Translations under genes and position numbers: made by a program
Assembly: GCA_030059665.1 (NCBI GenBank)
Contig: JANVYR010000001.1
Location: forward strand, 64,001 to 128,000
Length of the DNA: 64,000 bases
Direction of reading: 5' to 3'
From: Candidatus Calditenuis fumarioli
GTDB lineage: Archaea; Thermoproteota; Nitrososphaeria_A; Caldarchaeales; Calditenuaceae
Part shown: positions 15,232-42,008 of the stretch, in pieces
Numbering within the stretch: the first letter of the stretch is position 1
Layout: every line of letters begins with the position of its first letter
Notes under the pieces: model-generated
Told to the model about the DNA's origin: nothing
The model's database searches: none
The model's input: only the letters and a program-made list of their open reading frames with translations

Positions 15232-15681
15232 TTGTGGCTCGAGGAGTTCCGGGAGGGGATGACGCTCTCAACGCGGAGCAGAACCGTTACGCCCTCCGAT
15301 GTGGACCTCTTCGCATCGCTCACTTGGGCCGTCAACCCGATCTTCCTCAGCGACGAGGTGGCGAGGTCCAGGGGCCTTCCCGGTAGGGTCGCACCGGGAG
15401 CGCTGACCCTCTCCTACGCGATCGGCCTCCTCTACCAGACCGGAGTCTTCGACCACATACAGGCGCTGACCAGGATATCGGAGGTCGAGTTCAAGTCTCC
15501 CGTAAGGCCTGGCGACGAGATCTCGGTCGAGGCCGAGGTGGTTGAAGTCAGGGAGGTGAGGCAGGACGCCGGTGCGGTCACTTTGAGGTTCAGGGTGCAG
15601 AACCTCAGCTCCGGAAGGACCTCGCTGACCGGGTCGCTAACCGTCATCGTCCTCAAATCGAGGCCGCAGGGCTCTAAGTGA
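15232..15681 (+). CDS. MaoC-family (hot-dog) dehydratase
   Basis: WLEEFREG, RTVTPSD..FA..T...NPI..S, VAPG, FKSPVRPGD; TTTATTA about 26 nt upstream of TTG 15232. Confidence 0.82.
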   Translation: MWLEEFREGMTLSTRSRTVTPSDVDLFASLTWAVNPIFLSDEVARSRGLPGRVAPGALTLSYAIGLLYQTGVFDHIQALTRISEVEFKSPVRPGDEISVEAEVVEVREVRQDAGAVTLRFRVQNLSSGRTSLTGSLTVIVLKSRPQGSK

Positions 15682-16466
15682 AAGAGTGCGAGCTCCCACC
15701 GGAATCGGCACTAACCGATTTATCCAGGGCCGGCGACGTGAACACGGAGAGGATGGAGTTCAGGATCAGCCGGATCGCCCCGAGGGCGAAGGTCCTCGTG
15801 ACGGGCCTGCCGGACATGGGGAACGTGGCCGGGATATCGATGGAGGTACTGGTGAGGTCCTGCAACCTCGAGGAGTTCGCATCGGCCCTCGGAGACTGGC
15901 CGCCGTTCGTCACCCACACCGGCAGCATGATCAGGTTCGAGCGGGGTTGGTACAGGTTCTACGGAAGCGACGCCCACGATTTCGTCGCGCTGACCGGGAG
16001 CTATCAGCCGCCAGAGTCGAACGCGCTTTACGAGCTCTGCAACGCGGTGCTCGACCTGGCCCAGTCGATAGGCGTGGAGACCGTCATCTCGCTCGGCGCA
16101 GCCCACTTCGGCGAGGGCTTCATCGAGAACCCAAGGGTGTTCTTCGCGGCAACCTCCGAGCGGATGGCTGAGAAGGCCAGGCTTCACGGCGCTCTGCCGT
16201 TGCCTGACGAGGGTTACATCACGGGCTACAACGGGCTCATCCACGGCCTCGCGATGGAGCGGGGCATGGAGGGCCTCTGCCTGCTGGGCGAGATCGGGAA
16301 CCCGCGAGTCAGGCAGCCGGCCGCGGCCAAGGCCGTCCTCCAGGTCCTCTCCTCGATGCTGAACGTCTCGATCGACTACACCGACTTGGACAGGGAGATA
16401 GAGCAGATGAGAGCGATGAGGGCCCTCAGGAGGTGGAGGAGGGACCAGCCGCCTGGCGTCATGTGA
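15678..16466 (+). CDS. PAC2-family proteasome assembly chaperone
   Basis: GLPDMGNVAG, YQP, ISLGA, ITGYNGLI, CLLGE, P.AAKAVL. Confidence 0.82.
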   Translation: MKECELPPESALTDLSRAGDVNTERMEFRISRIAPRAKVLVTGLPDMGNVAGISMEVLVRSCNLEEFASALGDWPPFVTHTGSMIRFERGWYRFYGSDAHDFVALTGSYQPPESNALYELCNAVLDLAQSIGVETVISLGAAHFGEGFIENPRVFFAATSERMAEKARLHGALPLPDEGYITGYNGLIHGLAMERGMEGLCLLGEIGNPRVRQPAAAKAVLQVLSSMLNVSIDYTDLDREIEQMRAMRALRRWRRDQPPGVM

Positions 16467-34488: not shown

Positions 34489-34496
34489 TTTTATTA
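34489..34496 (+). promoter_or_regulatory. TATA box of the ubiquitin operon (likely leaderless transcript)
   Basis: TTTTATTA 27 nt upstream of the Ub ATG. Confidence 0.55.
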
Positions 34497-34522: not shown

Positions 34523-34759
34523 ATGAAGGTCAGGATCGTGCCGGCGGTTGGTGGAGGGCCCCCTTTGGAGATAGACGTTCCTCCCTCAACGACCATCGGG
34601 GCGATCAAGCTCAGGGTCTGCGCGATGAAGAAGCTCAGGCCCGACGACACCCGTCTCACCTACAAGAACAGGGCCCTCAGCGACACTGAAACGCTCGAGT
34701 CGGCCGGGGTCTCCGACGGCGACAAGCTCGTCCTCGTGACAAGGACCGTCGGGGGCTGA
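34523..34759 (+). CDS. Eukaryote-like ubiquitin, 78 aa, ending in GG
   Basis: RLTYKNRALSDTETLESAGVSDGDKLVLVTRTVGG* aligns by eye to ubiquitin [35 protein letters not shown]. Confidence 0.9.
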   Translation: MKVRIVPAVGGGPPLEIDVPPSTTIGAIKLRVCAMKKLRPDDTRLTYKNRALSDTETLESAGVSDGDKLVLVTRTVGG

Positions 34760-34763
34760 GCGG

Positions 34764-35267
34764 TTGCAGAGGGAGGTCCAGGAGCAGATCGGCTTCATGC
34801 CGGAGCCCCTCTGGTTCAAGAGGATAGCGCTGGAGTACCAGCTGATCAGGAACTACGAGCCCACCTTCGACGCCGTCGACGGCGACCTCACCCATTACAG
34901 AGGCGTCATAGTGGGGACGGGCTACTACGAGGGCGGTTTCTTCCTGGTGGAGATCTTCCTGGACCGCACCTTCCCCTACACGCCCCCCAGGGTGGTCTGG
35001 CACACCAGGATCTGGCACCCCAACTTCACCGATGAATCGCCAGCGAGGATCTGTGAGTCGATCCTGACGAAGGACTGGCACCCCAACACCAACGTGATAG
35101 CTGTGATCGAGGCGCTGAAGAACCTCCTCTCCAACCCCAACCCCGACGACCCGCTCAACGCATGGGCGGCCTACGAGATGAAGAACTCCTTCCACACCTT
35201 CATCGCAAGGGTCCGGCAGTACATCGAGCTGTACGCGTCCCCGGAGAAGGTGCTGAGGCAAGGGTAA
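34764..35267 (+). CDS. Ubiquitin-conjugating enzyme E2
   Basis: FPYTPP, IWHPN, RICESIL catalytic Cys, DW.P, LL..PNPDDPLN. Confidence 0.95.
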   Translation: MQREVQEQIGFMPEPLWFKRIALEYQLIRNYEPTFDAVDGDLTHYRGVIVGTGYYEGGFFLVEIFLDRTFPYTPPRVVWHTRIWHPNFTDESPARICESILTKDWHPNTNVIAVIEALKNLLSNPNPDDPLNAWAAYEMKNSFHTFIARVRQYIELYASPEKVLRQG

Positions 35268-35271
35268 CGAC

Positions 35272-36456
35272 TTGAGCGCAGGGAGCGAGCTGAGCGAGCG
35301 CTACGACCGCCAGATGCGGATCTCCGGATGGAACCAAGAGCTGGTCAGCGGAGCCTCCGTGCTGATCGCCGGCGTAGGAGCCCTCGGCTGCGAGGTCGCC
35401 AAGAACCTCGCCCTCTCCGGTGTCGGCAGGATAGTCTTGGTGGATCGGGACGTCGTGGAGCTCAGCAACCTGAACAGGCAGATGCTCTTCGACGAGTCCG
35501 ACATAGGGAGGAAGAAGGCGGAGGCTGGCGCTGAGAAGCTGAGGGCCATGAACCCCCACATCAGGATCGAGGCCTACCCCTCAGACCTGAGGGACCTCCC
35601 CGCGGAGCTCTTCGCCTCGGTCGACGTGATCTGCTCGTGCCTCGACAGCTGGGGCATCAGGAGGTGGCTCAACTCCGTCGCGGTCCTGAACAACAAACCC
35701 CTCGTCGACGGCGGCATCGAGGGCATGGTCGGGAACGTGCAGGTCGTGATCCCGGGCAGAACCGCGTGCCTCGAGTGCCACGGGACCACCCTCATCCCGC
35801 AGGAGGAGAGGATGGCCGAGTGCACGCTCCGACGGAGGAGGCCGGAGGAGCTGATCGAGGACCTCAAAGCTCAGGGCCTCGAGATCTCCCGAGAGCAGGC
35901 GGAGGCCCTCTTCAGGCACAACCTGAAGACCGTCTTCGACCTGAAGTACACGCCACCCGAGTCGGTCCCAGACGGAGAGGTCAGGTCGCTCCTCGAGTCC
36001 ATCAGGGAGAAGCTCAAGCCGAGGATGCCGGCAGTCCAGAGCGTCTCGTCCGTGATCGCCGGGATCGTCTCGACCGAGGTGCTGAAGATAATCCACCGCG
36101 GATCCATCGGTAGACCCATGAGGGGCCTGCTGGTCTACGACGCCTCCAACTCGAGGTTCACGAGGGTGCCTCTGAAGAGGATGGAGAACTGCATAGTCTG
36201 CGGCCAGGTGGACACCTCACCGCCCGAGGTCACCCTGGAGGACGGCGCCACCGTTTACAGGCTCAAGGAGGTGATAGCGGAGAGGTTCGGCTTCCCGGAT
36301 GCGGAGGTGATCCACGGTACCCGCGTGCTCGGGGAAGACGCGCCGCTCTCCTCCGTCCTCGGGCCGTCCGGGGAAGGGCTCCTGTACGTTGTCACGACGA
36401 GGAGGTACGAGCCCCTTCCCATCGTCGTCAAGCTCAGGGCACCGGGAGACCGGTAG
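35272..36456 (+). CDS. Ubiquitin-activating enzyme E1 (UBA3/UBA2-like)
   Basis: RYDRQ, GVGALGCE, SNLNRQ, PGRTACLEC, catalytic ECTL, CIVC zinc pair, C-terminal UFD-like extension. Confidence 0.93.
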   Translation: MSAGSELSERYDRQMRISGWNQELVSGASVLIAGVGALGCEVAKNLALSGVGRIVLVDRDVVELSNLNRQMLFDESDIGRKKAEAGAEKLRAMNPHIRIEAYPSDLRDLPAELFASVDVICSCLDSWGIRRWLNSVAVLNNKPLVDGGIEGMVGNVQVVIPGRTACLECHGTTLIPQEERMAECTLRRRRPEELIEDLKAQGLEISREQAEALFRHNLKTVFDLKYTPPESVPDGEVRSLLESIREKLKPRMPAVQSVSSVIAGIVSTEVLKIIHRGSIGRPMRGLLVYDASNSRFTRVPLKRMENCIVCGQVDTSPPEVTLEDGATVYRLKEVIAERFGFPDAEVIHGTRVLGEDAPLSSVLGPSGEGLLYVVTTRRYEPLPIVVKLRAPGDR

Positions 36457-36507: not shown

Positions 36508-37071
36508 ATGGCGTCGGACGAGGAGGGAGCTGGCAGGTCCCAGGAGCTCGCGGAGCTGAAGTCCTGGCTTGAGAGGAGGATCTCGGAGCTCTCGGCAGAG
36601 CTGGAGAGGCTGCGCGCGGTCATGAGGTACGTCGACGAGCTCCTCGCCGAGTCGAGCTTCAGGAGGGCCGACTCCCTGGTCACGAGGAGAGCGACCGAGG
36701 AGATGAGGGCGCCGCATCCGGAGGAGAGGCCGTCCCTGAGGACGATCAGGAGCAGATCCGGAACCGCACTGGCCACCCTCACCTACACGCAGGACGTCGC
36801 CAGGTTCGTGCTGAACCCTGACATCGTGGTTACGAAGGACCACAGGCCCTTCGCATCGTTCCTGCTGAAGAAGGTCCTCGAGGGCTACGTCAACCAGGAC
36901 ATGGAGCTGGTGAGCAGGGGCCTGCTCGACGCGAACCTCGCTTTCAGCTACGAGGTGGTCTACGAGGGCGAGAGGGTCAAGGAGATCGAGGTGAGGAATT
37001 ACCGGGAGGAGGCGAGGTTGAGGGAGATCATCAACGCCGTCCGTTGGACGCTCGAGACCGCGCTTGCCTGA
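36508..37071 (+). CDS. Hypothetical protein with N-terminal coiled coil
   Basis: RBS GGAGG before ATG; heptad-like ELAELKSWLERRISELSAELERL; host-like codon usage. Confidence 0.75.
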   Translation: MASDEEGAGRSQELAELKSWLERRISELSAELERLRAVMRYVDELLAESSFRRADSLVTRRATEEMRAPHPEERPSLRTIRSRSGTALATLTYTQDVARFVLNPDIVVTKDHRPFASFLLKKVLEGYVNQDMELVSRGLLDANLAFSYEVVYEGERVKEIEVRNYREEARLREIINAVRWTLETALA

Positions 37072-37086: not shown

Positions 37087-37962
37087 TCAAGCCTGCGACT
37101 GGCTCCCAACAGAGACGTCCTCGGCCGGTCTCCAGACGTCCCTCAGGCGGTCCATCAGCGTCCTCCTGAGCCTGACCGTAACGTTCCTCGAGACCTCGAT
37201 CATCTCGTCGAGGAGGGACTCCGGTATCAGGCCCGGCGAGTCCTTCTGGATGGCCGCCAGCTCGTCGTCCGTTCCCCACCCTATCACGATCGAGGCGTCC
37301 AGCGCCGGCTCCTCAAGCGCCGTCGGGTCCACGATCACCTTGTCCCTGAGGATCCCGATCATCGCCGCGGTCGGGAGCTTCACCAGCGGAAGCGGCACCC
37401 TCTCGCCAGCGACCTTCGTGACCACCCCGTTCTGGACCTCGTACCTCTGGACCCTTGCCGATGCGAGGGCAGCGGTGGCCGCCAGAACCGCAGGCGCGAA
37501 GTAGTCGCCGTCGAAGTCGAGGACGTAGACGTCGACGTAGACGACTCCCACCTTCTGACCCGGGACGTAGACCAGCTGGTCCAGCCGGAGTGCCTGCGAC
37601 TCCCTGATGCACCTGTCGACGAACCTGGAGAGTTCTATCGCGTTCTCGTCCGGAGGCCCCGGCTCGAAGGTCCTCGACGCGAGGGGTAGGAGCTCCGCGT
37701 TGACCGTCAGGTTCCCCTTGTCAGGCGTGTCGGGGTAAGGCGACCCCAGATCGTACTTCACGCCAGCGACGACCCTCGTCTTCCCGAGCGTGACCATCGC
37801 CGAGCCCTCCGCCTTCTCGACCACGTTCAGCTCCACCGAGACGGGCCTGTGCTGGAGGAGGCCCCTGCCGTCGATCCGTCTGCCCTGGAGCAGCAGCTCG
37901 TACAGCTTCCTCTGCAGTATCTGCGTCGGGTAGGGCTTCTCGCCGAGCCGGAAGACGCTCAA
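37087..37962 (-). CDS. rrp42: Exosome complex component Rrp42
   Basis: RIDGR, AEGSA.VTLG.T, EPGPPDE, SRFVDR.IRES. Confidence 0.93.
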   Translation of the reverse strand: MSVFRLGEKPYPTQILQRKLYELLLQGRRIDGRGLLQHRPVSVELNVVEKAEGSAMVTLGKTRVVAGVKYDLGSPYPDTPDKGNLTVNAELLPLASRTFEPGPPDENAIELSRFVDRCIRESQALRLDQLVYVPGQKVGVVYVDVYVLDFDGDYFAPAVLAATAALASARVQRYEVQNGVVTKVAGERVPLPLVKLPTAAMIGILRDKVIVDPTALEEPALDASIVIGWGTDDELAAIQKDSPGLIPESLLDEMIEVSRNVTVRLRRTLMDRLRDVWRPAEDVSVGSQSQA

Positions 37963-37963
37963 C

Positions 37964-38716
37964 TCAATCGGTCACCTCTCCGTAGGCCGCGAACCTCTTC
38001 TGGAGCGCCTTCTTCTGGGCCTCGTAGAGGACCTCTATCCCCTTCTTGGCCATACGCATGGCCTCCGAGAACTCCTCCCTCGTGAGCCGGCCGTTTAGCT
38101 GGAGCAGCACGATCGAGTTTATCGAGGGAGCCATCCCAACCGGCAGGTCGGCCTCGCAGTTCTTGTCCTCCTCCTCGCTCAGGTCCAGGACCAGCCTACC
38201 GGCAACCTTACCCACGGCGACGCCCGCAACGAGATCGGCCATAGGAATCCCAGCGTCGGCCAGCGCCAGAGAGGCGGCCGTGAGCCCTGCGGTCCTGGTT
38301 CCTGCGTCGGCCTGGATCACCTCCACGAAGACCTCGATCATCGACCTCGGGTACTCCTCCAGGAACAGGACGCTCTCCAGGGCCTCCCTGATGACCTTCG
38401 AGAGCTCGTGCTCCCTCCTCGTCATCCCAGGGGCCTTCCTCTCGGAGACGCTGAAGGTCGCCATGTGGTACCTGCACTGGAGGATGGCCCTGTGGGGCTG
38501 CGCGATATGCCTCGGATGCGCCTCCTTCGGGCCGTAAACCGCGGCGTAGATCTTGGTCTTCCCCATCTCGATGTAGGCGGAGCCGTCGGCGTTCTCCAGG
38601 ACCCCGACCTCCATCCTGAAGGGCCTCAGCTCGTCGGGCTTCCTGCCGTCGACGCGGGTACCGTCCTCCCTGATGAGCAATGCCTTCTCCATCACTCCTC
38701 CACCAGCTCCTCCCAA
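37964..38716 (-). CDS. rrp41: Exosome complex exonuclease Rrp41
   Basis: [40 protein letters not shown]. Confidence 0.95.
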
Positions 38717-39378
38717 AGCGCCCTCCTCAAGACCCCCATCACCTTCTCCTTAAGGCCCTCGAGCGTCGGCTCGGTATCGACCAGCCTGATCGCCGACGCG
38801 GCTGCGAACTCGTTCTTCGTCGACGGCCCGACGATCGCGATGTAGCCGTTCATGCCGATGTAGAGCTTGCACTGGGACTCGCGCTCGATGGTCTCTTGGA
38901 GCTCCCTGTCCCGCACCAGCAACCTCGGTACCCTCGTGGGCGACATGGTGACTATGAAACCCCGGGTTATCCTGTGGGCGTCCTTTCCTCCCTTCAGCAT
39001 CACGCCCTTCACCCCCGCGAAGGCGATGGCCGTGTAGATCACGTCGCCTATCGTGACCTGGGACTCCTTCCCGGACTTCTTCGCTTTCTTGGCCCTGAGG
39101 ATGCCGGTTATGCCCCAGCCGAGGTCGAGCTCGTAATAACTCGGCTTGATGTCGACGACGATCCCTATCACCCGGTCGTTCTCCCTCGGCTTGTAGGGCC
39201 CCCTGGCCGGAATCACCTCAGCCTTCTGACCCCTGATCCTCACCATGCCCGCAACGGCCGAGCGGACCAGACCTCCGTGGACGTAGGTGAACCTACCTGC
39301 CTTGGTCCTCTCGTCCGTCAGCGGCTGCCCTGGCAGGACGAAGTCCTTGTCGTTCACCAGCTCGGTCAAAGTTCGCAC
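38692..39378 (-). CDS. rrp4: Exosome RNA-binding cap protein Rrp4
   Basis: FVLPG, YKP..ND.VIG (S1), MSP.RVPRL, IGMNG (KH). Confidence 0.88.
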
Positions 39379-39427
39379 CTTCCTATATCACGAACGCCAT
39401 GTTCATTAATGAATCGGTTCCCCTCGG

Positions 39428-40126
39428 TCAGAGGGCCCTGACGTCACCCTTCCCCGAGGTTATCTTCATCACGCGCTCGGTGATCTCCGCCAGAAGCCCG
39501 GCAGGCGCCTCGACCTGGCAGACCCAGGTGCCGTCGCCCTTCCACTCCTCCCTGCTCAGCTTACCGATGCCCCTCAGGTATGACGCGACCCTCGGCTGGA
39601 ACTCCCCTGGGACCCGGACCTCGAAGACCCTCAACGCGATCTTGATGGGGAGCACCGGCCTCAACCTCTCGATCACCTTCCCCACCTGGTCGGAGGGCTC
39701 CGCGAACGGGTCGATCTGGACGCCCACCTCCTCCATCGCGAGCTCGATCCGCTGCGGCGGTATCGGGGCGTTGGTCCTCGGGTCGACCGCGTTCCTCGAG
39801 ATCAGGTCGATGATCTTCCGCCTCTTCTCCTCGATCAGTGCCCTCCTCTGCTCAGCCGTCACCTGGAGGTCTCCCTCCTTGAGGATCACGATGGCTATCT
39901 GGTAGGGGTCGGTGGTCCCGAAGGCCTTCCTCAGCTCCTCCTCCTTGGCCCTGATCCCCTTCTTAGCGTCCCTGAAGACCTCCGGGTAGACGAGGACCTT
40001 CTGGGAGGGCTGGGCCTGACCGAGCTTGATCTTCAGGGCCAGGTCCGGCTCCACCAGGACCTCGAAGGTCGTCCCCTTCCTGCTGATCCTGGCCACCGTG
40101 TACTGCTGCGGCATCCCACCCTGCAA
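39428..40126 (-). CDS. Ribosome maturation factor SBDS/Sdo1
   Basis: FEVLVEP, VFRDAKKG, LQVTAEQRR, VDPRT..PIPP.RIE. Confidence 0.93.
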   Translation of the reverse strand: MQGGMPQQYTVARISRKGTTFEVLVEPDLALKIKLGQAQPSQKVLVYPEVFRDAKKGIRAKEEELRKAFGTTDPYQIAIVILKEGDLQVTAEQRRALIEEKRRKIIDLISRNAVDPRTNAPIPPQRIELAMEEVGVQIDPFAEPSDQVGKVIERLRPVLPIKIALRVFEVRVPGEFQPRVASYLRGIGKLSREEWKGDGTWVCQVEAPAGLLAEITERVMKITSGKGDVRAL

Positions 40127-40211: not shown

Positions 40212-42008
40212 TTGAGGCAGGCGATGAAGATCAGGGTCGCGGTGCTGGAGCTGGAGAGGTGCCAGCCTGACAAATGCGGTACGCCCTGCATAGCCTTCTG
40301 CCCGCCGGTGAGGAACGGCATCGAGGCGATAGCGCTCGGACCCAACGGGTTCCCCTACGTGAACGAGGAGCTCTGCATCGGCTGCGGCATCTGCGTCGCC
40401 AAGTGCCCCTTCGAGGTCATCACGATCGTCAATTTGCCATCGGAGCTCGGAGAGGACCTGGTCCACCAGTACGGCGTCAACGCGTTCAGGCTTTACAGGC
40501 TCCCGCACGTCCAGAGGGGGAAGGTGGTGGGCGTCCTGGGCAGGAACGGGACCGGGAAGTCGACCGCCTTCAGGATCCTCTCCGGCCAGCTCGTCCCCAA
40601 CTTCGGCGACCTCGAGGGGAGGAAGGGGTGGGAGGAGGCGAACCTCAGGTTCAGGGGTACCGTCCTACAAGACTACTTCAAGGCCCTCGGCTCGGGGAAG
40701 ATCAGAGTCTCCCTCAAGCCGCAGCAGATCGAGCTCCTCTCGAGGGCCGTTCGGGGGAAGGTGAGGGAACTCCTGAGCAGGGCTGCCTCCGGAGGCGACT
40801 TCACCAGGGTGGCCGAGGAGCTGGACCTGGTCCACCTGCTGAACAGGGACGTCTCGGTGCTCAGCGGAGGGGAGCTGCAGCGCCTCGTGATCGCCGCCAC
40901 CATCCTGAGGGGAGGAGACGTCCTCATCTTCGACGAGCCCACCAGCTTCCTCGACGTCCACCAGCGCTTCCGCGTCGCCTCGGTGATCAGGTCCCTCGTC
41001 AGCGAGGAGAGGGCGGTCCTCGTCTCGGACCACGACCTGGCCTTCATGGACTACGTATCTGACTCGGTCTTCGTGCTGTACGGCGAGCCCTCGGTCTACG
41101 GCATAGTCTCGGGACCGTACGGCGCCAGGGAGGGGATCAACTGCTACCTCGAGGGTTACCTGCCCCTGGACAACGTGAGGTTCAGGAACTTCCGGATCGC
41201 CTTCCAGGTGAAGGGTCCGGAGGAGAGGGCGGAGGAGACCGGAGCTCCTGGGCTGTACTGGCCGGCGATGACCAAGACCTTCGAGGGCTTCAGGCTCTCG
41301 GTCCCGGAGGGATCCATCCCGAGGGGTGAGGTGCTCGCGGTCCTGGGCCCCAACGGCATCGGCAAGACAACCTTCGTGAAGCTCCTCGCGGTTCAGCTCG
41401 AGGACGACAGCGGCCTGAGGCTCGATTACGCATCGGTGAGCTACAAGCCCCAGCACCCGGTCCCGAGGCCAGAGACCGTCGAGGAGGTACTCCGGAACGC
41501 GGCGGGTGAGAGGTTCGAGGGCGAGTTCGTCCAGTCGGAGCTGATCAGGCCCCTCAGGCTGGAGAAGCTGATGGAGAGGAGGCTCGACGAGCTCAGCGGC
41601 GGAGAGCTCCAGAAGGTCTCGATCGTGGAGGCCCTCTCGAGGCAGGCGGACATCTACTTGCTGGACGAGCCGAGCGCGTTCCTCGACGTGGAGGAGCGCT
41701 ACGTCATCGCCAGGACGATACGGAGGATAGCAGCGGACCTGAGGGCGCACATCGTCCTTGTAGAGCACGACCTGATGCTGGTGGACTTCGCCGCGACGAG
41801 GGTGATGGTCTTCACCGGCAGACCCGGGATCGAGGGGAGGGCGCTGCCGCCGATGGACCTGAGGTCCGGCTTCAACGCGCTCCTCAGGGAATTGGGCATC
41901 ACCTTCAGGAGGGACCACGAGACCAAGAGGCCGAGGGTCAACAAGCCCGGCTCGAGGCTGGACAGGATCCAGAAGGAGACGGGAGAGTACTACTATCTGG
42001 CCGCCTGA
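40212..42008 (+). CDS. abce1: Ribosome recycling ATPase ABCE1/RLI
   Basis: Two Fe-S motifs (CQPDKC..C, CIGCGICVAKCPF), two NBDs, LSGGELQ, RPRVNKPGS. Confidence 0.96.
   Translation: MRQAMKIRVAVLELERCQPDKCGTPCIAFCPPVRNGIEAIALGPNGFPYVNEELCIGCGICVAKCPFEVITIVNLPSELGEDLVHQYGVNAFRLYRLPHVQRGKVVGVLGRNGTGKSTAFRILSGQLVPNFGDLEGRKGWEEANLRFRGTVLQDYFKALGSGKIRVSLKPQQIELLSRAVRGKVRELLSRAASGGDFTRVAEELDLVHLLNRDVSVLSGGELQRLVIAATILRGGDVLIFDEPTSFLDVHQRFRVASVIRSLVSEERAVLVSDHDLAFMDYVSDSVFVLYGEPSVYGIVSGPYGAREGINCYLEGYLPLDNVRFRNFRIAFQVKGPEERAEETGAPGLYWPAMTKTFEGFRLSVPEGSIPRGEVLAVLGPNGIGKTTFVKLLAVQLEDDSGLRLDYASVSYKPQHPVPRPETVEEVLRNAAGERFEGEFVQSELIRPLRLEKLMERRLDELSGGELQKVSIVEALSRQADIYLLDEPSAFLDVEERYVIARTIRRIAADLRAHIVLVEHDLMLVDFAATRVMVFTGRPGIEGRALPPMDLRSGFNALLRELGITFRRDHETKRPRVNKPGSRLDRIQKETGEYYYLAA

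Follow-up and report, generated by a model that had tools for sequence, protein, structure and literature searches.

The operon at positions 34523-36456 of the window (the whole 64,000-nucleotide stretch of DNA analysed here) encodes a ubiquitin homologue, an E2 and an E1, and is very likely the core of the eukaryote-type ubiquitylation system of the Caldarchaeales (formerly 'Aigarchaeota'), with CSUB_C1474-1476 as its orthologues in Ca. Caldiarchaeum subterraneum. The operon is genuine but not new, as it belongs to a known kind of system already published from Aigarchaeota genomes (PMC3082918, PMC5654768, PMC6053391). The earlier note had described such operons as known from Caldiarchaeum and Asgard archaea and rare elsewhere. 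The E2 family occurs in 59 of 59 sampled Caldarchaeales genomes and in 6 of ~341 genomes from the rest of the phylum, and 14 control genomes lack it altogether. The window derives from a hot-spring archaeon whose nearest named contigs are those of Ca. Calditenuis sp. and Calditenuaceae JGI OTU-1; it belongs to the Caldarchaeales, where such operons were already known, so their range is not widened.

All three genes lie on the + strand, and both intergenic gaps in the ORF reading are 4 nt. The ubiquitin gene (34523..34759, 78 aa; Pfam ubiquitin, 1.2e-11) is followed by genes for a UBC-fold E2 (34764..35267, 167 aa; UQ_con, 3e-26) and an E1 (35272..36456, 394 aa; ThiF, 2e-61), both with TTG starts. 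Orthologues of the E2 start at this codon too, with ATG, TTG or GTG, and do not conserve its internal Met12, and the TTG of the E1 is the sole start codon 5' of the conserved RYDRQ motif. A TATA-like box, TTTTATTA (34489..34496, + strand), was read directly ~27 nt 5' of the ubiquitin ATG, and 12 orthologous loci, spread over three genera, have an AT-rich box at the matching position (genome GC, ~64%). With the box at this distance, transcription from a single TATA promoter would give a leaderless or near-leaderless operon mRNA. The earlier proposal of three co-oriented ubiquitin, E2 and E1 genes with 4-nt gaps behind one TATA box is thus confirmed, down to the exact coordinates of the ORFs. 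As expected in an archaeon, a scan of the stretch for sigma-70 promoters and intrinsic terminators was uninformative.

The ubiquitin ends in R-T-V-G-G directly before TGA, so that the mature form is encoded directly, and a GG-stop ending is common to all loci of its family. Like the modifiers of the Cluster I systems (PMC5654768), it is a beta-grasp ubiquitin with a C-terminal Gly-Gly. Its best single-domain PDB matches are structures of the C. subterraneum ubiquitin-like protein (6fj7, 2mqj, 6fnn; ~1e-35), whereas eukaryotic ubiquitin is matched at ~5e-5 in the PDB sequence search. Equivalents of Lys48, Lys63 and Ile44 of eukaryotic ubiquitin are absent, the aligned residues being R50, D65 and T46. 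A modifier needing no maturation step would make in vitro work simpler; diGly-remnant proteomics, which the earlier note had suggested as a check, would overlook its sites, because the remnant expected on substrates after trypsin digestion is TVGG, with a mass shift of +314.16 Da as calculated from residue masses.

The E2 carries its HPN motif at residues 85-87 (nt 35016-35024) and a catalytic Cys97 (nt 35052-35054), which aligns with the active-site Cys of UBC8, UBE2D and E2-K. These three are also its best PDB matches (~1e-19) and, among UBC-class E2s, all of which have the HPN/Cys core in common with it, the ones that it most resembles. With UBE2D (UBC4/5 class) among them, the description of the protein as UBC4-like is upheld. 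The WHPNF and PNPxDPLN motifs and Cys97 are invariant in 27 E2 orthologues, and a UBC fold with HPN loop and catalytic Cys is what characterizes the E2s of Cluster I (PMC5654768).

The E1 combines an adenylation domain (GxGxxG at residues 34-39), Zn-type cysteine pairs C166/C169 and C307/C310, a catalytic Cys184 in an ECTL motif (nt 35821-35823), a small helical Cys domain of ~70 residues following this cysteine (~184-250), and a UFD-like tail at approximately residues 315-390 (nt 36214-36441). Cys184 aligns with Cys600 of yeast Uba1 in the HMMER alignment, and the catalytic and Zn cysteines as well as the ATP-site residues are invariant in 46 orthologues. A PDB sequence search ranked Uba1 (7e-42) and UBA3 (7e-40) ahead of MoeB (3e-28), and the AF2 model (pLDDT 88.9) has UBA3 as its top Foldseek match (E 2.9e-28, TMq 0.74). 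Structural alignment of the model with VIA covers 358 residues of UBA3 (Z 34.4, model residues 3-390) and 233 residues of MoeB (Z 33.5, model residues 2-311). Whether by sequence or by fold, UBA3, Uba1 and SAE2 match the E1 over its Cys domain and tail as well, whereas MoeB and ThiF match the core alone.

The layout is thus that of UBA3 rather than of MoeB, as the earlier note had argued; domain order, catalytic Cys position, Zn site and beta-grasp tail all correspond to UBA3 and UBA2/SAE2, although, unlike in these eukaryotic NEDD8 and SUMO E1 subunits, the Cys domain has only ~70 residues. The ECTL cysteine and CxxC pairs of that description were found as stated. The UFD-like tail stands on the fold model, its own sequence scoring below threshold against Pfam ubiquitin (E 0.078) and giving no BLASTP match to the ubiquitin of the operon. 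The predicted fold, together with Pfam ubiquitin hits in the tails of E1 orthologues, supports a beta-grasp fold for the tail. The E1 layout of Cluster I (PMC5654768) is accordingly present, its last element by way of the predicted resemblance to the UBA3 C-terminus and the Pfam hits of orthologues.

Phylogenetic analysis points the same way. In a rough tree (FastTree, SH-like supports, 166 columns, chosen root, mostly unnamed sequences), the E1 falls with Asgard and Uba1-type E1s, apart from MoeB/ThiF-like proteins of 245-265 aa and also from the MoeB-rhodanese paralogue of its own genome. The Asgard E1-like proteins grouping with it come from Njord-, Ran- and Helarchaeota. A grouping with MoeB/ThiF, which the earlier note regarded as counting against its reading, was not seen; the rough tree shows the opposite. 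A corresponding placement and layout have been reported for Cluster I E1s (PMC5654768). The Asgard Ub/E1/E2/RING clusters described there (Clusters I and II) belong to a different phylum and vary in content.

The E1 is probably a symmetric homodimer, as judged from modelling. The homodimer model reached an ipSAE of 0.78 (best of three controls, 0.00), with at least 97% contact agreement between runs and a partner pLDDT of at least 84. Of 30 proteins with structures solved as same-chain pairs, 20 reach the ipSAE mark, as does 1 of 23 with single-chain structures; these counts are only a rough guide here because an alignment of our own was used. Structures of MoeB/ThiF dimers and of E1 heterodimers have been solved, so the score may stem from likeness to them. 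In common with the MoeB/ThiF/UbaA activators, the E1 is a likely homodimer with the Arg-finger helix at the interface. The E1 gene has no neighbour encoding an inactive partner of the NAE1 or SAE1 type, as in UBA3 and UBA2 systems, and none of the three ThiF-family genes in the genome adjoins the operon.

The closest characterized relative is the C. subterraneum operon CSUB_C1473-1477, which encodes Rpn11, Ub, E2, E1 and a small RING finger protein (PMC3082918). Rpn11 structures are available (PMC6043591), and the system has been reconstituted in vitro, with ATP-dependent activation, auto-ubiquitylation of E1 and E2, a stimulatory effect of the small RING, and Rpn11 reversing the modification (PMC5654768). 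We recognized the reference locus by the 9-aa propeptide of its ubiquitin and by an E1 N-terminus agreeing with the supplement of PMC5654768. Its gene order is Rpn11, Ub, E2, E1, small RING, coiled-coil genes and membrane RING. Identity to the window proteins is 73% for Ub, 58% for E2 and 45% for E1, and the TVGG end of the ubiquitin, the Ub-E2-E1 order and the tight spacing are common to both loci. The window differs in that its ubiquitin lacks the propeptide, in that a conserved hypothetical gene replaces the small RING after the E1, and in the position of Rpn11, which is divergently encoded next door in C. subterraneum and lies ~68 kb upstream here.

No E3 or deubiquitylase gene was found within or next to the operon, and throughout the loci of the family to which the window belongs, neither the small RING nor Rpn11 occurs within 1.5 kb of it. 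The C. subterraneum arrangement with RING in the operon and Rpn11 adjacent is therefore missing, as a feature of layout and not of gene set. The genome encodes an intact Rpn11 orthologue (E 1.6e-42 to CsRpn11, 6fju; C1, ~29.8-30.4 kb), an intact small RING of 71 aa (zf-RING_2, 2.7e-7; C1:264587-264799, ~165 kb from the operon) and a membrane-anchored RING protein (C1:817870-818703). The last has been retained by 59 of 61 Caldarchaeales genomes and lies 2-3 kb downstream of the E1 in the other families. Since no such gene lies in or beside the operon, the pairing of these partners with the E2 is assumed.

All 61 Caldarchaeales genomes sampled for it carry an E1 orthologue, and wherever orthologous loci were examined within the order, the Ub-E2-E1 arrangement, characteristic of Cluster I (PMC5654768), recurs. 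The three genes are under purifying selection, with dN/dS of 0.02-0.31 overall (Ub 0.02-0.09, E2 0.05-0.20, E1 0.14-0.31). From this selection, the invariant catalytic residues and the reconstitution of the orthologous proteins of C. subterraneum (PMC5654768), we infer that the operon would encode a functional thioester cascade. Transcription from the single TATA promoter as a near-leaderless mRNA would yield a 78-aa ubiquitin with a free Gly-Gly end, which would make processing by Rpn11 unneeded. The E1, probably as a symmetric homodimer, would adenylate Gly78 using ATP/Mg and then hold the ubiquitin as a thioester on Cys184. Its beta-grasp tail would recruit the E2, to whose Cys97 the ubiquitin would pass. 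Transfer to substrate lysines may be aided by the unlinked 71-aa RING and the membrane-anchored RING, and removal may fall to the unlinked Rpn11 orthologue.

Other readings of the operon fare poorly. An E1 acting as a MoeB/ThiF/UbaA-type activator, together with a small protein that would serve molybdopterin, thiamine or tRNA thiolation as a sulphur carrier and would not be a protein modifier, draws on the very good superposition of the adenylation core on MoeB/ThiF (Z 33, rmsd 1.7), which extends to the Zn CxxC pairs, and on a representative search in which MoeB-size proteins score equal to Uba1-type ones. Yet members of that class consist of an adenylation domain alone or with a rhodanese domain and lack a Cys domain, a beta-grasp tail and an E2 partner, all of which are found here. 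The Cys domain and tail account for ~125 aligned residues absent from MoeB/ThiF, a conserved UBC-fold E2 gene separates Ub and E1 in the orthologous loci examined, the ubiquitin is nearest to that of C. subterraneum and not to MoaD or ThiS, and the genome has another gene (C2:90378-91085) whose product is MoeB-like and includes a rhodanese domain. We regard this explanation as having a nearly negligible chance of being right. Conjugation without E2 or E3, as in the SAMP/UbaA system of Haloferax, with another role for the E2-like gene, could be suggested by the absence of a linked E3 gene and by the ability of the C. subterraneum E1 to auto-ubiquitylate alone (PMC5654768). It appears very improbable given that the HPN and Cys of the E2 are invariant at dN/dS of 0.05-0.20, that the E2 gene sits, translationally coupled, between those for Ub and E1 and that the orthologous E2 accepts ubiquitin in vitro (PMC5654768).

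Origin and state of the locus raise two further alternatives. Ubl-E2-E1-JAB operons do exist in prokaryotic defence islands (PMC10557695), and the same genome holds a second system of such flavour, so that a mobile defence-type operon (bacterial Bil or 'Cluster III'), or else a recent transfer from a eukaryote, might be envisaged. The operon, however, occurs in every sampled genome of the order as a conserved core locus adjoined by housekeeping exosome and SBDS genes; its codon-position GC matches that of neighbouring genes; it includes no JAB; and its E1 has the C-terminal beta-grasp missing from Cluster III and bacterial E1s. Such an origin can be almost entirely discounted. A decaying relic, inactive since the loss of its linked E3 and deubiquitylase, would agree with a small RING and Rpn11 that are not adjacent, in contrast to C. 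subterraneum, but is highly unlikely in view of the intact reading frames, invariant catalytic residues, low dN/dS, conserved promoter box and intact RING and Rpn11 orthologues elsewhere in the genome.

Among prokaryotic models for the origin of eukaryotic ubiquitylation, the Caldarchaeales system ranks with the best. The window operon, read as its core, provides an additional clean, high-GC, thermophilic copy and leaves the accepted picture unchanged, while comparing layouts across the order points to a stepwise break-up of the locus and to the conserved membrane RING as a candidate component. More speculatively, and with a good deal of doubt, the ancestral compact locus may have dispersed in the Calditenuaceae, leaving an E2 that serves two unlinked RINGs, the membrane-anchored one among them, and a ubiquitin that, being already active, is no longer gated by Rpn11. 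If true, archaeal ubiquitylation would have a membrane-associated branch that recalls the RING ligases of the ER membrane in function; we found no mention of such a branch in the cited literature on the system.

Several other genes were considered as parts of the system. The PAC2 gene that the earlier note had pointed to as a proteasome chaperone is indeed in the window (15678-16466), but a specific link to the operon was rejected, as it is one of five genome paralogues, lies 18 kb away and belongs to a family that archaeal control genomes commonly carry. A scan of the ORFs at 37-44 kb, in the neighbouring exosome/SBDS cluster, found no proteasome gene. The 187-aa gene 3' of the E1 (36508-37071) was also set aside, since it holds this position only in the window's own genus; it is present in 55 of 61 genomes, in other genera on other contigs or far from the E1, has no Pfam family and falls in Atlas clusters annotated only as 'hypothetical protein'. 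Homology between the coiled-coil gene after the Rpn11 gene of this genome and the 302-aa coiled-coil gene of C. subterraneum was unsupported (E 0.94). The second system in the genome, of Cluster III/Bil-like flavour, occupies a separate locus on contig 2 and fits that type better than the operon does.

What the earlier note had observed at 34523-36456 is confirmed and its interpretation of a eukaryote-like ubiquitin-E2-E1 operon is supported, but the three genes are the already known ubiquitin system of the Caldarchaeales. Genes for ubiquitin (34523-34759; 78 aa; Pfam ubiquitin, 1.2e-11), E2 (34764-35267; 167 aa; Pfam UQ_con, 3e-26) and E1 (35272-36456; 394 aa; Pfam ThiF, 2e-61) all lie on the forward strand and, as first described, follow one another at gaps of 4 nt each. 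Both the E2 and the E1 begin with TTG. The E2 start is supported by its orthologues, which have ATG, TTG or GTG at the same position, while the internal Met12 of the window's protein is not conserved; for the E1, whose open frame extends just five codons further, the TTG is the sole start codon 5' of the RYDRQ motif conserved in it. An AT-rich box, TTTTATTA (34489-34496, forward strand), lies approximately 27 nt 5' of the ubiquitin ATG, and 12 loci spanning three genera have an AT-rich box at the same position although background GC is approximately 64%. This fits the TATA promoter proposed earlier and would imply a near-leaderless transcript.

The ubiquitin-like protein ends in R-T-V-G-G-stop, and its best single-domain matches in the PDB are structures of the C. 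subterraneum ubiquitin-like protein (6fj7, 2mqj and 6fnn; approximately 1e-35), followed by eukaryotic ubiquitin at approximately 5e-5. In the alignment from that search, R72, V70 and the GG end of human ubiquitin are retained, while I44, K48 and K63 are replaced by T46, R50 and D65; lysines are found at positions 2, 29, 36, 37, 48 and 68. Every locus of the window's family encodes the 78-aa protein with GG-stop, and hence in mature form, in contrast to the 9-aa propeptide of C. subterraneum and the 7-15 additional residues in several other families. At four loci of families f3 and f4 that encode a C-terminal propeptide (L022, L024, L028 and L030), the E2 frame begins within the TVGG codons or immediately past them, so that the propeptide and the first part of the E2 gene are encoded by overlapping sequence in different frames. 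The E2 is UBC4-like, as had been claimed, matching UBC8, UBE2D and E2-K at approximately 1e-19 in the PDB, with HPN 85-87 and Cys97 falling on their active site; WHPNF, Cys97 and PNPxDPLN are invariant among 27 orthologues.

Sequence and predicted fold both bear out the UBA3/UBA2-type layout of the E1. Its PDB sequence matches are led by the active adenylation domain of Uba1 (7e-42), UBA3 (7e-40, residues 24-314) and SAE2 (2e-31), with MoeB ranking after these (3e-28) and covering residues 9-160 only. Cys184, within E-C-T-L, aligns to Cys600 of yeast Uba1. Across 46 Caldarchaeales orthologues the GxGxxG glycines, D58, N66, R69, Q70, K82 and D125 are invariant, as are C166, C169, C184, C307 and C310. 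Foldseek with the AF2 model (pLDDT 88.9, pTM 0.82) placed UBA3 at the top (2.9e-28, TMq 0.74) and SAE2 second, with MoeB and ThiF matching the core only (TMq 0.55, TMt 0.9). VIA-align Z-scores were tied (UBA3 34.4, MoeB 33.5), but UBA3 aligned over 358 residues, spanning 3-390 of the model, and MoeB over 233 residues ending at 311; the Cys insert, approximately 70 residues long, and the beta-grasp tail thus resemble UBA3 in the model. The tail is assigned from predicted fold: by sequence it gave sub-threshold matches only and none to the window's own ubiquitin, while many E1 orthologues carry a Pfam ubiquitin match in the tail, and that of C. subterraneum is matched by the window's ubiquitin (38% identity, 3e-9).

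Searched with phmmer, 1.84 billion cluster representatives yielded 338 matches at 1e-30 or better, and 153 sequences aligned to the Caldarchaeales E1 profile were used for a FastTree phylogeny of 166 columns. Proteins of MoeB/ThiF size (245-265 aa) are basal in this tree, which is rough, having few columns, mostly unnamed leaves and a chosen root (the MoeB-rhodanese paralogue of the same genome). The window E1 groups with Caldarchaeales, and their clade (SH-like supports 0.86-0.95) takes in E1-like proteins of Njord-, Ran- and Helarchaeota among the Asgard archaea as well as Uba1-type proteins of approximately 1000 aa. This agrees with the published separation of Cluster I and II archaeal E1s, usually bearing a ubiquitin-like domain at the C-terminus, from the ThiF/MoeB/MoeZ classes (PMC5654768 supplement), and therefore sets the protein apart from the MoeB/ThiF sulfur-carrier activators, the grouping that the earlier note had named as contrary to its reading.

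Modelling suggests that the E1 is probably a homodimer, scoring 0.78 against 0.00 for the best of three controls, with runs sharing at least 97% of contacts, a partner pLDDT of at least 84 and the N-terminal RYDRQ helix forming part of the interface. Among proteins of solved structure, 20 of 30 same-chain pairs and 1 of 23 single chains attain the mark applied, counts that hold only approximately here because a custom alignment was used, and this E1 may pass it through resemblance to MoeB/ThiF dimers and E1 heterodimers of solved structure. Near the operon there is no NAE1- or SAE1-like partner gene.

The presence of the system across Aigarchaeota genomes has already been published (PMC6053391), and the Calditenuaceae genome JGI OTU-1 was included in a cluster survey (PMC5654768). 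In our comparison, an E1 orthologue is found in 61/61 genomes of the order (4 families, 14 genera) and the E2 family in 59/59 sampled genomes of those four families, against 6 of approximately 341 genomes from the rest of the phylum and none of 14 control genomes. Named protein homologues belong to Aigarchaeota, Caldarchaeales and C. subterraneum, and the closest named contigs are from Candidatus Calditenuis sp. (85% identity) and Calditenuaceae archaeon JGI OTU-1, pSL4 (84%); metagenomes of hot springs and sediments from 12 studies contain the stretch. A relative's genome on a single 1.68-Mb contig (G024) matches Ca. C. subterraneum in its 9-aa ubiquitin propeptide and E1 N-terminus (PMC5654768 supplement), and the window genome's proteins share 73% (ubiquitin), 58% (E2), 45% (E1) and 50% (Rpn11) identity with its own.

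In vitro, the C. subterraneum orthologues show propeptide cleavage by Rpn11, activation that depends on ATP, E1 and E2 that ubiquitylate themselves, stimulation by a small RING protein and reversal by Rpn11 (PMC5654768), and from orthology we infer that the window operon would encode a functional thioester cascade. Its frames are intact, its catalytic residues invariant and its selection purifying, with within-genus dN/dS of 0.02-0.09 (ubiquitin), 0.05-0.20 (E2) and 0.14-0.31 (E1), where dS is approximately 0.6-0.7 for the nearest pair and near saturation for the others.

Further putative components are encoded elsewhere in the genome. The Rpn11 orthologue (1.6e-42 to 6fju) lies outside the window, approximately 68 kb upstream of the operon. 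The small RING gene, which here is a 71-aa ORF (C1:264587-264799; zf-RING_2, 2.7e-7), comes directly 3' of E1 in f3 and f4 but at no locus of the window's family; as in C. subterraneum, a small coiled-coil gene still follows it (E 8e-6). A candidate second E3 is a membrane-anchored RING protein (C1:817870-818703, reverse strand; L003 1483-2322) whose 279 aa include four hydrophobic stretches and, at the C-terminus, a RING-H2, and which is kept in 59/61 genomes of the order, including C. subterraneum (L050 4880-5632), and receives no mention in the literature on the system surveyed. In f2-f4 its gene lies 2-3 kb downstream of E1, beyond the gene for the small RING and two that encode coiled-coil proteins.

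Directly 3' of E1, a conserved hypothetical gene (36508-37071, forward strand) encodes 187 aa with a coiled-coil N-terminus and no cysteine; the Atlas connects it with large clusters from Nitrososphaerota that have no Pfam family. Although present in 55/61 genomes of the order, it was excluded as a system component because it adjoins E1 only in the window's genus. Convergent to the operon is an exosome cluster (37087-40126, reverse strand; Rrp42-type and Rrp41-type RNase PH, Rrp4 and SBDS), followed by an ABCE1/RLI-type ATPase (40212-42008, forward strand); the ORFs scanned around the cluster yielded no gene for a proteasome subunit. The PAC2 gene reported earlier is indeed in the window (15678-16466, or C1:79795), one of five PAC2-family paralogues in the 1.57-Mb genome, the others being at C2:559467, C1:615124, C2:2754 and C3:71407.

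Outside the window, contig 2 carries a second ubiquitin-like system (approximately 193231-194530; L047 7232-8531; L002 648-1947), in which a 272-aa fusion of a beta-grasp domain ending in RPVGG with an E2-like domain (UQ_con, 3.4e-7) is followed by a JAB/MPN+ gene (2.4e-16). The pair adjoins genes for an ATPase and a platform protein of type IV pilus-like kind (T2SSE, T2SSF), and a ThiF-type E1 that is short and lacks a tail is encoded approximately 16 kb away at C2:210523-211260.
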